From: Synergistales bacterium
GTDB taxonomy: Bacteria; Synergistota; Synergistia; Synergistales; JAFGMB01
Reading direction: 5' to 3'
DNA: 64,000 nt
NCBI GenBank assembly: GCA_963666205.1
Contig: OY762654.1
Location: forward strand, 1,728,001 to 1,792,000
In this document: one piece after another, positions 57,085 to 61,111 of the stretch
Layout: each line of letters starts with the position of its first letter
How positions within the stretch are numbered: position 1 is the stretch's first letter
Made by a program: the position numbers and the translations under genes
The notes under the pieces: model-generated
Told to the model about the DNA's origin: nothing
Databases searched by the model: none
Seen by the model: the letters and a program-made list of their open reading frames with translations, nothing else

Positions 57085-57428
57085 ACTATATTTTAATAAT
57101 TCAAAAAAATCAAGAACATTATTTACCTTCATTGCTGCAGTCTTTTTCTCTGAAAAACAGCCATACTCCCTGTTTCCAACCATCGGTTCTTATATGATTC
57201 GATATAGTCCTGAATCTGTATGGTCCTGATCTGTGGGACATTTGACGACAAAATTATCTATAAGAATAAAAACAGATCATTGAAGGTAAGTTTACACTTT
57301 TCTGATAAACAAGTTATACTACTATAACTTCAGTAATAATTCAATAATATGCTCAGGACAGATATTCTTCTGCTTTTAAATGGTTTTTTAATAAAATTAA
57401 ATCTGCTGATAAAGAAGGTGTATCTTTC

Positions 57429-57806
57429 GTGTCAGAAAAAAATACCTATGTTATCTGGACAAGGGAAACATTGCTGGAAATGGCTGAAAAGGCGACCCAT
57501 GGCAGTAACCCCGAGGGTGGAGTGTCCATCTCTTTTCTTCGTCAGGAGAACGAGTGTGCTGTAAACGTTGTAGAACTGAAGAAGGGGATCCCTTCTCATA
57601 GGCATGTGAGACATGATGAGATAATCCAGATACTTGAAGGAGAGGGAAAAGCCGTAATTGATGGAGAGGAAAAACAACTCAAACCTGGAGATGTACTGTT
57701 CTGCCCGAGAAATATCTCTCATTCCCTCCATTTTCCAGTCAAACTTCTTTCCATATACACACCCTCCTTTGATCCACGGAATCCGGACAGGATCTTCGAT
57801 AATTAA
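57429..57806 (+). CDS. Cupin domain protein
   Basis: HRH..HDE..ILEGEG and PGD.L.CPRNISH cupin motifs. Confidence 0.88.
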   Translation: MSEKNTYVIWTRETLLEMAEKATHGSNPEGGVSISFLRQENECAVNVVELKKGIPSHRHVRHDEIIQILEGEGKAVIDGEEKQLKPGDVLFCPRNISHSLHFPVKLLSIYTPSFDPRNPDRIFDN

Positions 57807-57820
57807 AAGAGAATCATTTA

Positions 57821-57852
57821 ATGGGCTGTCCTGAATGGGATAGCCCATTTTT
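57821..57852 (+). terminator. Intrinsic terminator after the cupin gene
   Basis: ATGGGCTGTCC..GGATAGCCCAT followed by a T-run. Confidence 0.7.
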
Positions 57853-57927
57853 ACAGACAGGTTTCGGGAGTGATCTGTAAAAGGGGCCAAGCGTAATAAT
57901 TTGCAGGACCATAGTGTTTGAAGGGAT

Positions 57928-58278
57928 ATGGATAAAATGAAAAAAACCCGCAAGATAAAAATATACATGGAAAGACCCTACTCTTCCGTTTGCTGAAGTA
58001 ATTTCTGCTATGGAGAGGAAGAGATGAAATCCTTTCCCATGAAGGACAGCCGTGTGCTGGTCGGTAATATTCTGGGGAAAATAAGGGAAAAATATGGATC
58101 CAGGGTGAGCATAAACATATATGATCCAAGGTGCTACCTCTGGTTTTTCGATCTTGTAAGGTTCAACGTAAGGGCTACTGAAGCAACATGGATCATGGAT
58201 GGGAAACTTCTGGCCAGGGGCGTTCCATCCTGGGAGGATCTTGAAATATCCATTGATGAAAGGCTTGAGAAAGAATGA
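57928..58278 (+). CDS. Candidate small selenoprotein, thioredoxin-like fold (in-frame TGA at 57994-57996)
   Basis: MDKMKKTRKIKIYMERPYSSVC[UGA]SNFCYGEEE continues in frame into ORF 58024..58278; hairpin at 58010-58040. Confidence 0.6.
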
Positions 58279-58357
58279 GCTGTGGTAAAATAATCCTGCC
58301 TTAATCGAGTTTTCCATCAGGTTGGTTTCATCCTTTTTCTTTGAAGGTGGGTTTGTT

Positions 58358-61111
58358 ATGACCGGAGACGAAAGAAACAGAATTTCCTCAGAACGGAGTC
58401 CCTCCGTGGAAAAACCCGTCCTTGAAAGTGAAAAGGTGCCCTGCTCTTCTGAAGAGAAAGGTAGCGGCCTCCGTCGGGAGATGCATATACCCCTGGGATT
58501 AAGCAGTCTGATATCCTTCCTCATAACCGATATTCAGGGAGAGGAAGCTTCTATAATGTCAACAAGCAGCGGAGCAGAACGACTTTTCGGTTATGGTCCG
58601 TCTGAAATGGCGGGTCAGCTCCTTTCGTCCATTATGGTTCCAGACAGGGTGTGCCGCCTTCCTGTTATTTTCGGCAAACTATCGGCCACTAAAGAGGGAT
58701 ACAGTTCAGAGACAGTCCTTGCAAAGCGATCGGGAGAACTTTTTCCTGCGCATCTTAAGGTCTATCCTGTGCATGATAAAGATGGTAATGTGGTACAGGC
58801 CCTTTTTTTTATCACCGACCTTTCCTCCCGTAAAAAACTTGAAAAGGAACTCTCCAGGAGCGAGGAAAAATTCCGTATTCTCATTGAGAATTCTCTTGAT
58901 ATCATAACCATCCTTGATCACGATGGAACAGTGACCTATCACAGCCCTTCTGTCAGGGATGTCCTCGGTTATGAAAAGGGTGAACTGCAAAGAGCCAATA
59001 TTTTTGACAACATACATCCTGAAGATTTCCCTGCGACTATGTCCGCCCTCGCTGAAGTATCTAAAGATCCAGGTATTCCAAAGGTCCTTGAACATCGTTT
59101 CAGAGATAGTTCCGGGGCCTGGAAGATATTTGAGAGCCGGGGTAAGGCTCTTATATCCGGTTCTGGCCTTGAAGGGATAATTGTAAATTCCAGGGATATT
59201 TCCGACAGAAAGGAAGCAGAGAGGGAACTTTCCCGCCGTCTTCATTTTGAGGAGACCCTTTCGGAAATATCAACAAGATTTGTCCTGACACAATATCTGG
59301 ATGAAGCGATCAACACTTCCCTTGAACAGCTCGGTCTTTTCAGTTGCGCAAGTCGTGCCTATATTTTTACAATTGACAGGAAATCCGGAACAATGAGCAA
59401 TACCCATGAATGGTGTTACAAGGATATAGAGCCCCAGATAGATCATCTCCAGTTCCTTCCTCTCAATAGCTTTCCATGGTGGATGAAAAGACTTGAAGAA
59501 GATGGAGAGATAGTTATTCAGGATGTATCCAGCCTTCCTCCGGAGGCATCTGCCGAGAAGACTATCCTCCAGGAACAGGGGATAAGATCCATCCTCGTAC
59601 TTCCCTTTTATTGTGCCAATTCGATCAGGGGTTATGTGGGTTTCGACAATGTGATCTCCACCTGGGCCTGGGAAAAGAAGGACATAAGACTTCTCAAGGT
59701 CTATGCACATATCCTTGGCCAGGCTTTTGAAAAAAATGAAACTTTCCGTTCCTATCAGTCCAGCCTCCAGTTCAACCTCAGTCTTCTCAACAGTTCTCCA
59801 AACCCGATAATGGTTCTTGATGCACAAGGTTCAATAACCTATGTAAATCCTTCCTTTGGCAGGGTATCAGGCTATACCTTAAAGGAAGTCAGGGGCATGA
59901 GAGCCCCTTATCCCTGGTGGCCTGAAGATGACGTGGAGGATTGCCTCCGGGAACATGAAGCCCTCTTAAGAGGTAATAGTACAGCAGGAGAGAAACGGTT
60001 TATATCCAGCAAGGGAGAGACTTTCCGGGTTTACATAAATAGCTCTCTTATAAATGGAGAAGAAGGGGAGAACCATTTCCTGGTTAACTGGCTCGATATC
60101 ACAGAGCGGTATCGGGCAGAGAGGGCTCACAGGGCTTCAGAGGAAAAATACAGATCTCTCGTGGAAAACCTGAATGAAATAATTTATTCACTCAACAGGG
60201 AAGGACATATCACTTTTATAAGCCCTGTTGTAAAAGCATTGCTTGGATATGAAACATCGGAGATGGAGGGATGCGCCTTTACTTCCTTTGTTCACGAAGA
60301 TGACAGTTACGCTGTGGAGGCAAGCCTGAAGGACCGGTGGGCTGGCATTCCGGAAAAGTATGAGCTCCGCATGATCAGCAATGAAGGTAAAGTACATCAC
60401 GTGCTGGTTTCGTCAAGACCCCAGTTTGACGGAAATAACGTAGTTGGTGTTATCGGCTCCCTCAGCGATATCACAGCCCAGAGGGAAACGGAGATCAAAC
60501 TGGAGGCAAGTTACAGAAAGCTTGATGAATTGATGGATGGAGCCGCATCTTCCATAGTGTCTCTTCTGGAGATAAGAGATCCCTATTCAGCCGGACATCA
60601 GAGACGGGTATCCATACTCGCTACGGCAATTGCAAAGGAAATGAAGCTTAAGGAAGAACAGGTGGAAAATGTAAGAATTTCCAGCCTTGTCCACGATATA
60701 GGAAAGATCCATATACCAGCTGAGATACTCAGTAAGCCATCAAAGCTGAGAAAAACGGAATTCGAACTTCTCAAGGCTCATCCCCGCTCGGGTTCTGAGG
60801 TCATACATAAATTCGCTTTCCCTGAGATCATCGGAGAAATAGTGCTCCAGCATCATGAGAGATTCGACGGTTCGGGTTATCCGGATGGTCTGAAGGGACA
60901 GGAAATACTGCTTGAGGCCAGGATCCTTGCCGTGGCAGATGTTGTGGAAGCTATGGTTTCCCATAGACCCTATCGTCCGGCCCACAGTTTTGATGAAGCC
61001 CTGGAGGAGATCTCTTCAAAGAGCGGCATTCATTTCGACCCTGAAGTTGTAGTTGCCTGTATCAGTGTCTTTTCAAAAAAAGGGTTCTTCGCAGGGTCTT
61101 CCAGTATCTGA
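58358..61111 (+). CDS. Cytoplasmic multi-PAS-GAF-HD-GYP protein
   Basis: Four PAS-like repeats, GAF (MSNTHEWC), HDIGK, HHERFDGSGYP, HRPYRP. Confidence 0.9.
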   Translation: MTGDERNRISSERSPSVEKPVLESEKVPCSSEEKGSGLRREMHIPLGLSSLISFLITDIQGEEASIMSTSSGAERLFGYGPSEMAGQLLSSIMVPDRVCRLPVIFGKLSATKEGYSSETVLAKRSGELFPAHLKVYPVHDKDGNVVQALFFITDLSSRKKLEKELSRSEEKFRILIENSLDIITILDHDGTVTYHSPSVRDVLGYEKGELQRANIFDNIHPEDFPATMSALAEVSKDPGIPKVLEHRFRDSSGAWKIFESRGKALISGSGLEGIIVNSRDISDRKEAERELSRRLHFEETLSEISTRFVLTQYLDEAINTSLEQLGLFSCASRAYIFTIDRKSGTMSNTHEWCYKDIEPQIDHLQFLPLNSFPWWMKRLEEDGEIVIQDVSSLPPEASAEKTILQEQGIRSILVLPFYCANSIRGYVGFDNVISTWAWEKKDIRLLKVYAHILGQAFEKNETFRSYQSSLQFNLSLLNSSPNPIMVLDAQGSITYVNPSFGRVSGYTLKEVRGMRAPYPWWPEDDVEDCLREHEALLRGNSTAGEKRFISSKGETFRVYINSSLINGEEGENHFLVNWLDITERYRAERAHRASEEKYRSLVENLNEIIYSLNREGHITFISPVVKALLGYETSEMEGCAFTSFVHEDDSYAVEASLKDRWAGIPEKYELRMISNEGKVHHVLVSSRPQFDGNNVVGVIGSLSDITAQRETEIKLEASYRKLDELMDGAASSIVSLLEIRDPYSAGHQRRVSILATAIAKEMKLKEEQVENVRISSLVHDIGKIHIPAEILSKPSKLRKTEFELLKAHPRSGSEVIHKFAFPEIIGEIVLQHHERFDGSGYPDGLKGQEILLEARILAVADVVEAMVSHRPYRPAHSFDEALEEISSKSGIHFDPEVVVACISVFSKKGFFAGSSSI

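Follow-up and report, generated by a model that had tools for sequence, protein, structure and literature searches.

Is a TGA that interrupts a small gene of a Synergistales bacterium a stop codon, or is it read as selenocysteine (Sec)? The codon in question (57994-57996) is located in a stretch of 64,000 nucleotides (C1:1728001-1792000; contig OY762654.1, assembly GCA_963666205.1), here called the window, of a genome that consists of one contig of 2.95 Mb. Positions given without a contig label are counted from the first letter of the window. A first-pass annotation had proposed that an open reading frame (ORF) of 84 amino acids (aa) at 58024-58278, on the forward strand, extends upstream in frame through this single TGA to an ATG at 57937 or 57928 behind the sequence AAGGGA, and this was confirmed by the sequence, the ORF list and the translation with TGA read as U. 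Judged from the comparison of related sequences, the gene very probably encodes a genuine selenoprotein. As a whole, the locus is best explained, and in our judgement likely so, by a selenoprotein gene whose product would have a thioredoxin fold and may serve as a thiol/selenol redox carrier.

The reading frame and the TGA/Cys column

The read-through peptide has the sequence ...KIKIYMERPYSSVC-U-SNFCYG... around the TGA and the C-terminus TWIMDGKLLARGVPSWEDLE. Just 5' of ATG 57928 the frame is closed by an in-frame TGA (57919-57921). The Shine-Dalgarno-like AAGGGA (57921-57926, forward strand, read from the sequence) lies 10 nt 5' of ATG 57937 and only 1 nt 5' of ATG 57928, and the homologues begin with a Met 5-6 residues ahead of the first strand. 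Because of this spacing and these N-termini the start was taken as ATG 57937; the alternative ATG would add three residues. The coding sequence (CDS) is thus placed at 57937-58278 on the forward strand and comprises 113 aa and a stop codon, also TGA (58276-58278). Full-length homologues, a coding-type substitution pattern on both sides of the UGA and a confident single-domain model all point to this assignment, in which the UGA at 57994-57996 would be Sec at residue 20, as indicated by the TGA/Cys column of the homologues and by the Sec machinery of the genome.

With the read-through protein as query, a six-frame search matched 30 of 61 related genomes, and most of the matches cover residues 3-115 and contain exactly one TGA or none. 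In a six-frame profile search of 268 Synergistota genomes the family was matched in 97, including 66 of the 176 high-quality genomes, and in 38 of 76 genera. After 60 further regions had been added, the family hidden Markov model was run on 138 loci, and hits with fewer than 90 of the 112 profile positions as well as identical DNA were dropped, giving 100 distinct full-length members (five further full-length matches with one TGA and about nine with none are left out of this count). At the column of the window UGA, these members were found to carry TGA in 62 cases, TGC in 27 and TGT in nine, so that Cys is encoded in 36, and TAT and TTT once each. The Tyr and Phe codons both belong to second copies of tandem pairs. 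In an alignment of 41 sequences with U read as C, the Sec column is one of only two invariant columns, the other being Pro97. It is because of these homologues, with 62 TGA and 36 Cys codons at one column, and not from this sequence alone, that the read-through is considered to be more than chance.

The segments on both sides of the UGA were observed to change as coding sequence does. Among 33 colinear Sec forms, non-consensus letters at codon positions 1, 2 and 3 number 107, 89 and 194 in the 15 codons before the UGA, and 229, 222 and 352 in the 30 codons after it. In each of the 62 Sec forms the upstream frame is free of stops; the remaining two frames are interrupted by stops in 39 and 11 of them. 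Purifying selection therefore acts on both sides of the UGA and the upstream codons evolve as coding sequence. Database entries are truncations of 78-95 aa, the nearest being 78-90 aa long, and their first residue is the Met after the TGA; every database entry seen for the Sec forms is a truncated "hypothetical protein". The suggestion of the first-pass annotation that gene callers truncate a Sec-containing thioredoxin-fold protein is borne out by these entries, by the homologues and by the model described below. The same holds for its expectation of homologues with TGA or Cys at this codon and conservation on both sides, since non-cysteine residues were found only in the two degenerate tandem copies, and for its expectation of Sec machinery.

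All four genes of that machinery were found in the genome. The scores are 564.7 bits for selA (cut-off 267.9) and 364 bits for selB (cut-off 242), which lies directly downstream of selA, and 333.7 bits for selD, above its curated cut-off; tRNA-Sec (selC) scores 77.1 bits against a gathering score of 47. The selD gene (C1:2905894-2906826, reverse strand) itself carries one in-frame TGA and is a Sec-containing selenophosphate synthetase. Across the phylum, a Sec form is confirmed in 59 genomes, and selA is above the cut-off in 56 of these, the three others being metagenome-assembled genomes (MAGs) that are 86, 80 and 65% complete; this co-occurrence is a weak test only, as 208 of the 268 genomes have selA anyway. 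In such a genome the UGA would be decoded as Sec by Sec-tRNA(Sec) delivered by SelB.

Further copies of the family were noticed in this and in other genomes. A second, paralogous Sec form is present at C1:2188455-2188781 (forward strand), about 52% identical, with the site SASC-U-ASMPY, the DPRC motif and one TGA at the same column. Tandem pairs occur in several genomes (G002:C9, G229:C78, G170:C23 and G070:C5); in two of these pairs one copy is without the reactive residue, which is replaced by Tyr or Phe, and in G170 both copies are Sec forms. In the same-genus orthologue (G001:C2:56581-56925), another in-frame TGA takes the place of the nearly invariant Trp85 codon, which turns TWI into T-stop-V. 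A nonsense mutation or pseudogene in that strain, or an assembly error, may lie behind it, and a second Sec is unlikely. Two groups of matches were set aside. A wider taxonomic scan with a single-protein query returned, besides one true relative, two cyanobacterial matches that were weak and covered 28 residues only. Long Kelch-repeat proteins among the weaker hits of the representative search (residues ~38-100, E 1e-6 to 1e-3) are Kelch propellers according to Pfam and were taken as chance resemblance through 'YDP..TW..LDG.VL..GG', a strand-turn-strand similar to Kelch blades.

The simplest alternative to read-through is that the UGA is an ordinary stop and that the 84-aa protein is made as annotated from ATG 58024, perhaps after an upstream ORF of 19-22 codons. 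Public gene calls agree with it, giving 78-90 aa for this gene and its closest relatives, an ATG is indeed present at 58024, the true stop of the gene is a TGA as well, and the hairpin considered below is individually non-significant. Such a product would however be without strand 1 and without the only invariant reactive residue, although the N-terminal strand is part of the predicted fold and the Cys forms are continuous across the site; in addition, an ordinary stop would not be expected to leave the upstream frame always open, with third-position-biased change. We regard this reading as very improbable. Even further from what was observed is a decaying pseudogene, or a sequencing error that turned a Cys or Trp codon into TGA. 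The second TGA of the same-genus orthologue does indicate that nonsense changes or errors occur in this lineage, but the TGA of the window gene is kept in metatranscriptome contigs of a strain ~99% identical and selection is purifying on both of its sides, which makes decay or error exceedingly improbable. The recurrence of TGA at one column in 62 sequences from 59 genomes stands against both explanations.

The hairpin downstream of the UGA

If the UGA is decoded as Sec, SelB would presumably be recruited by a hairpin inside the CDS (58010-58040, forward strand), which is a candidate selenocysteine insertion sequence (SECIS). Its arms ATGGAGAGGA (58010-58019) and TCCTTTCCCAT (58030-58040) enclose a 10-nt loop (AGAGAUGAAA, 58020-58029) that begins 23 nt past the UGA, and its core is an 8-bp stem between 58012-58019 and 58030-58037. 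According to the rules for bacterial SECIS elements in the accessible part of PMC13188914, the apical loop has 3-9 nt, the upper stem 4-16 bp, a G is present in the first two loop bases, the distance from the UGA is 16-37 nt and the minimum free energy (MFE) is -7.5 or lower. The window hairpin was found to agree with these rules in its spacing (23 nt), its stem (8(+3) bp), the start of its loop (AG...) and its energy (-10.1 to -12.6).

Comparison among the relatives lends this hairpin some further weight. Most Sec forms are predicted to fold a hairpin at this position. When the 57 nt from the codon onward were folded and compared with their own shuffles, the mean z was -1.31 in the Sec forms (n=62) and -0.47 in the Cys forms (n=36), a difference with a Mann-Whitney p of ~1e-4 among sequences that, being related, are not independent. 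For the Ser in the 3' arm, TCY was observed in 41 of 43 Sec forms but in only four of ten Cys forms that share the Ser-Phe motif; most of the six AGY codons of the Cys forms come from one clade. With the loop limit relaxed post hoc to 10 nt, 38 of the 62 Sec forms comply with the rules, as do 10 of the 36 Cys forms and 140 of the 1240 shuffles.

Several results weigh on the other side. The loop of the window hairpin exceeds the permitted length by one base and so misses the published consensus, and the fold of this hairpin (MFE -12.6 kcal/mol, z -1.31) is equalled or bettered by 19 of 200 shuffles, so that by itself it is not beyond chance. Under the strict rules, in a simple implementation, 26 of 62 Sec forms pass together with nine of 36 Cys forms and 137 of 1240 shuffles (11%). 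In 36 colinear Sec forms, 86.1% of the cells of the fixed 8-bp stem can pair as against 85.8% in column shuffles and 54-69% when the partner strand is slid. Covariation is weak, with double changes in only three stem pairs, a level matched by seven of 500 shuffles, and RNAalifold gave no consensus structure for 36 Sec forms. The hairpin overlaps the codons of a conserved peptide, G-E-E-E-M-K-S-F-P, which is also common to several Cys forms; coding therefore accounts for much of the stem pairing. A search of Rfam with E <= 10 returned nothing relevant.

The first-pass annotation had described this element as compatible with a bacterial SECIS. Its arms are present and its geometry is within the published rules save for the loop size, whereas the loop of 10 nt and the weak covariation do not support the description. 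A subset of accepted selenoprotein genes is reported to fall outside the SECIS model, as far as the accessible part of PMC13188914 goes. The hairpin at 58010-58040 is thus a plausible SECIS but not a proven one.

The predicted fold and the nearest known proteins

The window protein was found to match no Pfam family at E <= 10 and gave no meaningful match to NCBIfam; a precomputed Pfam domain is likewise present in none of 53 profile hits. Its fold was predicted with AlphaFold2 from the 41-sequence alignment, giving a model with a mean predicted local distance difference test score (pLDDT) of 87.9 and a predicted template-modelling score (pTM) of 0.78. The model consists of strand E5-10, a hairpin of strands E15-18 and E21-24, helices H27-31 and H36-56, strand E57-62, helix H67-75, strands E84-87 and E90-94, and helix H99-111. 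In this prediction the elements follow the thioredoxin order (strand-helix-strand-helix-strand-strand-helix) with an insertion between strand 1 and helix 1, and Cys19-Sec20 is placed at the tip of the inserted beta-hairpin. The first-pass annotation had located the TGA after the first beta-strand, where thioredoxin redox motifs lie, and the model agrees, as Sec falls between strand 1 and helix 1.

Structural comparison points to the same fold. In a search with VIA-align against 48,161 PDB representatives, the top 50 matches (Z 9.7-7.8, 84-92 aligned residues) are almost all thioredoxins or thioredoxin-like proteins. Thioredoxins are also the best matches of Foldseek, with E of 3.8e-3 to 3e-2; no match was obtained at E <= 0.001, which counts against the assignment. 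Sequence profiles touch the family only at its margins: TIGR00411 (the MJ0307 family) is reached by four of 41 members (best E 4.5e-4) and PF13192 by two (best E 0.035), and in a profile search PDB entries 1nho and 1fo5 appear at E 0.25 and 0.32, a weak link to small archaeal-type thioredoxins. The look-alikes in the ESM Atlas are unnamed Synergistota clusters first and then a cluster with PF13192 in 13% of its members. Among selenoprotein models, NF047660 (HUIPC motif) alone was reached, by one of 41 members at E 0.004. RNA-free RNase P chains stood at the top of the PDB profile search (E 4e-4), but these were discarded as spurious since they align with profile positions 29-66 only, a short charged helix. 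The Cys forms that carry names come from Aminobacterium, Synergistaceae and Coprothermobacteraceae, and their names are hypothetical protein, "thioredoxin family protein" (in a Spirochaetales MAG) and "Thioredoxin-like fold domain-containing protein".

Four known systems resemble the family in part. The MJ0307/MTH895-type archaeal thioredoxins (TIGR00411 redox_disulf_1; PF13192 Thioredoxin_3; 1fo5 and 1nho) share with it a minimal thioredoxin fold of 85-115 aa, a reactive residue after strand 1 and a C-terminal strand-strand-G-x-P-helix end. They differ in that the window family is without CxxC at the start of helix 1; instead, [C/G]-[U/C] is carried on an inserted hairpin of ~15 residues, which is followed by the short helix GEEEMKSFP. 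Moreover, the window protein matches neither TIGR00411 nor PF13192, and many family members have a single Cys. The SelW-like/Rdx proteins (PF10262; 2fa8 and 2npb) also have a small thioredoxin-like fold and carry Sec in the loop that joins strand 1 to helix 1, and the structural match to 2fa8 and 2npb has Z 8.5 and a root-mean-square deviation of 2.2-2.4 over 76-78 residues. However, the Rdx motif is CxxU, the window family gives no match to PF10262, and, judging by the ranges aligned, Rdx proteins have neither the inserted hairpin nor the C-terminal G-x-P motif. Mammalian thioredoxin reductase carries a C-terminal Gly-Cys-Sec-Gly redox centre in the tail of a large flavoenzyme. The likeness here is a vicinal Cys-Sec on a flexible exposed element, for which an eight-membered selenenylsulfide ring is possible, and the Cys forms of the family are often CC; the difference is that the pair is located in a loop of a free-standing thioredoxin-fold domain and that the preceding Cys occurs in only 33 of 62 Sec forms. 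Finally, Sec.1 and Sec.2 of Brachyspira are, by their description in the accessible part of PMC5330540, small bacterial thioredoxin-like selenoproteins with Cys homologues, with truncated or missed genes that are sometimes in tandem. By that same description they are set apart by a recognisable PF13192 domain and by Sec in a short N-terminal extension (CxU or UxC), whereas the window family shows no PF13192 match, carries Sec after strand 1 and belongs to Synergistota rather than Spirochaetota.

The family is absent from the catalogue tables of PMC9312934 (2022; 87 families) and PMC13188914 (2026; 119 families and subfamilies), within which families defined only by CDD or PANTHER were not compared directly. 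Nearly all families in these tables rest on a Pfam, NCBIfam or TIGRFAM model, and no such model matches here. Brachyspira Sec.1/Sec.2 and SelW-like come nearest, and the window family falls outside both. For two Synergistota genomes analysed with deep-Sep, the accessible part of PMC12013277 reports no new family. A full-text search of the literature on Synergistota selenoproteins or novel selenoprotein families found no description of the window family; the supplements of PMC5029168 and PMC12013277, and BSepDB, might list it under another name.

Active site, possible function and genomic context

In the window gene, Sec is preceded immediately by Cys19 (codon 57991-57993), forming the dipeptide C-U in the translation, and in the family a Cys right before Sec was found in 33 of the 62 Sec forms, with Gly as the usual alternative. 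Cys24 (58006-58008), at +4 from Sec, is not conserved, as a Cys at this position occurs in only two of the 62 Sec forms, those of this genome and of its same-genus relative. The Cys-Sec-x3-Cys motif of the first-pass annotation is therefore correct for this gene but is not a motif of the family. Other arrangements include C-G-U (12), U-x-C (7) and G-U-C (5), and five Sec forms are without a neighbouring Cys. A further Cys at the start of helix 2 (DP[RK]C; Cys66 in the window protein, codon 58132-58134) is present in 44 of 62 Sec forms against two of 36 Cys forms, a contrast that is inflated by kinship, and is the candidate resolving cysteine. Altogether, a candidate partner Cys at -1, +1, +/-2 or column 66 is present in 61 of 62 Sec forms. 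Among the 36 Cys forms, 17 carry a vicinal CC, and the other 19 possess just one Cys and lack Cys66. CxxC, UxxC or CxxU at the N-terminus of helix 1 was not found in this family, whose site is C-U (in relatives G-U, U-C, UxC, CxU or a lone C) on the hairpin before helix 1. The conserved core is a single Sec or Cys, usually after Gly or Cys.

These features suggest how the protein may work. The product would be a cytoplasmic one-domain thioredoxin-fold protein of 113 aa with no signal peptide, in which Sec20 would be the only conserved reactive residue, at the hairpin tip where thioredoxins carry CxxC. The exposed selenolate would attack a disulfide, a sulfenate or another oxidised group on a partner. 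Judging by thioredoxin, glutaredoxin and the Cys-Sec centre of thioredoxin reductase, Cys19 or Cys66 would then resolve the adduct. In the thioredoxin fold strands 1 and 2 are parallel and the residues after them lie on the same sheet edge, and because of this a Sec20-Cys66 selenenylsulfide is plausible and Sec20 is probably near Cys66. The protein would most likely be a thiol/selenol carrier that alternates between the selenolate and a selenenylsulfide (Sec20-Cys19 or Sec20-Cys66), with electrons passed to a partner enzyme or adducts resolved on it.

A redox function is, on these analogies, about an even proposition. The first-pass annotation had named a Sec-containing redox or metal-binding protein; the Sec protein is borne out, and the role as redox or metal protein is argued from likeness. 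As 19 of the 36 Cys forms have a single Cys, a cycle of the dithiol type cannot be the general mechanism of the family, which weighs against the carrier proposed above. With so many natural 1-Cys forms the common denominator is a single nucleophile, and a carrier or metal-binding role was therefore kept as the main rival. On this alternative the protein would still be a selenoprotein, but its Cys-Sec pair would serve to hold or transport a soft metal, a metalloid or selenium, and the protein would be a chaperone, a carrier or a sensor and not an oxidoreductase. The frequent 1-Cys forms suit a carrier that needs one nucleophile, and Cys runs (CC, CCC or CGC) are found at the site in many members. 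C-U dipeptides have been tied to metal or organometal proteins such as the MerB-like lyase SaoL, HgcA, SaoC and MbdU in the accessible portions of PMC13188914 and bioRxiv 10.1101/2022.07.06.499078. However, only 33 of the 62 Sec forms have the preceding Cys, with Gly as its usual substitute, none of the conserved neighbours is a metal-transport, mer, ars or sel gene, and the fold matches are redox thioredoxins, not metallochaperones. We therefore consider the metal role rather unlikely and prefer the thiol/selenol carrier.

The genomic context was not found to favour any function. In the window, a GntR regulator is located further upstream, followed by a cupin gene (57429-57806), the selenoprotein gene and a PAS/HD-GYP-type signalling protein (58322-61111), an order common only to the same-genus genome. 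Among 100 loci compared, no partner gene was conserved beyond sub-clades, which again offers no help to the proposed role; with no general neighbour, context gives no function for the window gene. In other clades the gene follows a lipid A acyltransferase gene or precedes typA/bipA. One clade of about ten genomes has, directly upstream and on the same strand, a protein with two 4Fe-4S ferredoxin motifs. In the same clade an MsrA is encoded upstream on the opposite strand, and in seven of eight loci (L086, L088, L092, L094, L095, L096 and L099) it has the motif GUFWG with TGA in place of the catalytic Cys codon and is called truncated. This MsrA has a hydrophobic N-terminal segment, and the gene between it and the family gene is often the one of ~265-320 aa with the two ferredoxin motifs. 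MsrA was rejected as a partner since it adjoins the family in one clade and not the window gene, and its hydrophobic N-terminal segment suggests export.

An antisense ORF of 236 aa (57814-58524, reverse strand) spans the whole gene, and many relatives are likewise open in this frame. It seems to result from codon usage in the sense gene rather than to represent a separate gene; the seemingly conserved 'cluster 2' neighbour ORFs were dismissed because they are this antisense frame of the family gene itself. After the upstream cupin gene, a terminator-like hairpin was read from the sequence at 57821-57853 on the forward strand (AATGGGCT ... AGCCCATT and then TTTT, with an 8-bp stem and a 14-nt loop), which suggests that the selenoprotein gene has its own transcript; one of the RNA-library contigs begins a little past it, at 57865. 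A scan for promoters and terminators near the gene gave nothing useful, and it missed this hairpin because its loop limit is 8 nt. Metatranscriptome contigs from the strain mentioned above cover 57386-58700 (run X1) and 57865-58273 (run X4), with the TGA unchanged in both and three differences within the gene (a synonymous change at Lys8, Tyr15Cys and Ile86Val). These contigs are no more than consistent with expression, since carry-over of DNA into an RNA library is possible and neither translation nor transcript ends nor the level of expression are visible in them.

The novelty lies in the family as such, in the [C/G]-U site that its hairpin carries and in the range of 1-Cys, 2-Cys and Sec forms that it contains. 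Its recoding mechanism and its fold both belong to the best-known type, and no new principle is involved; to our knowledge, thioredoxin-fold selenoproteins with Cys homologues are the commonest kind of selenoprotein. At 113 aa the protein is a very small natural scaffold for a Cys-Sec pair, and its natural 1-Cys, 2-Cys and Sec variants make it suitable for comparing selenol with thiol. Prediction tools would gain a Sec/Cys family with an atypical hairpin that has a 10-nt loop. More tentatively, and as a possibility that we hold below an even chance, the family may be an undescribed class of minimal thioredoxin-fold proteins in which a protruding beta-hairpin presents one selenol or thiol, in many cases within a vicinal Cys-Sec pair; it would then be the free-standing counterpart of the thioredoxin reductase tail and may be dedicated to shuttling electrons or selenium/sulfur for the amino-acid fermentation of Synergistota, which is rich in selenoenzymes. 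If this is true, the hairpin codons (GEEEMKSFP) would have been shaped jointly by protein and SECIS constraints. Synergistota are listed among the bacteria richest in selenoproteins in the available part of PMC5029168. The family has been missed so far, with no Pfam or NCBIfam model, although it is present in 97 of 268 genomes of this phylum and its Sec form in at least 59, and its inclusion would mend the annotation of many genomes and increase the selenoproteome counts of the phylum.

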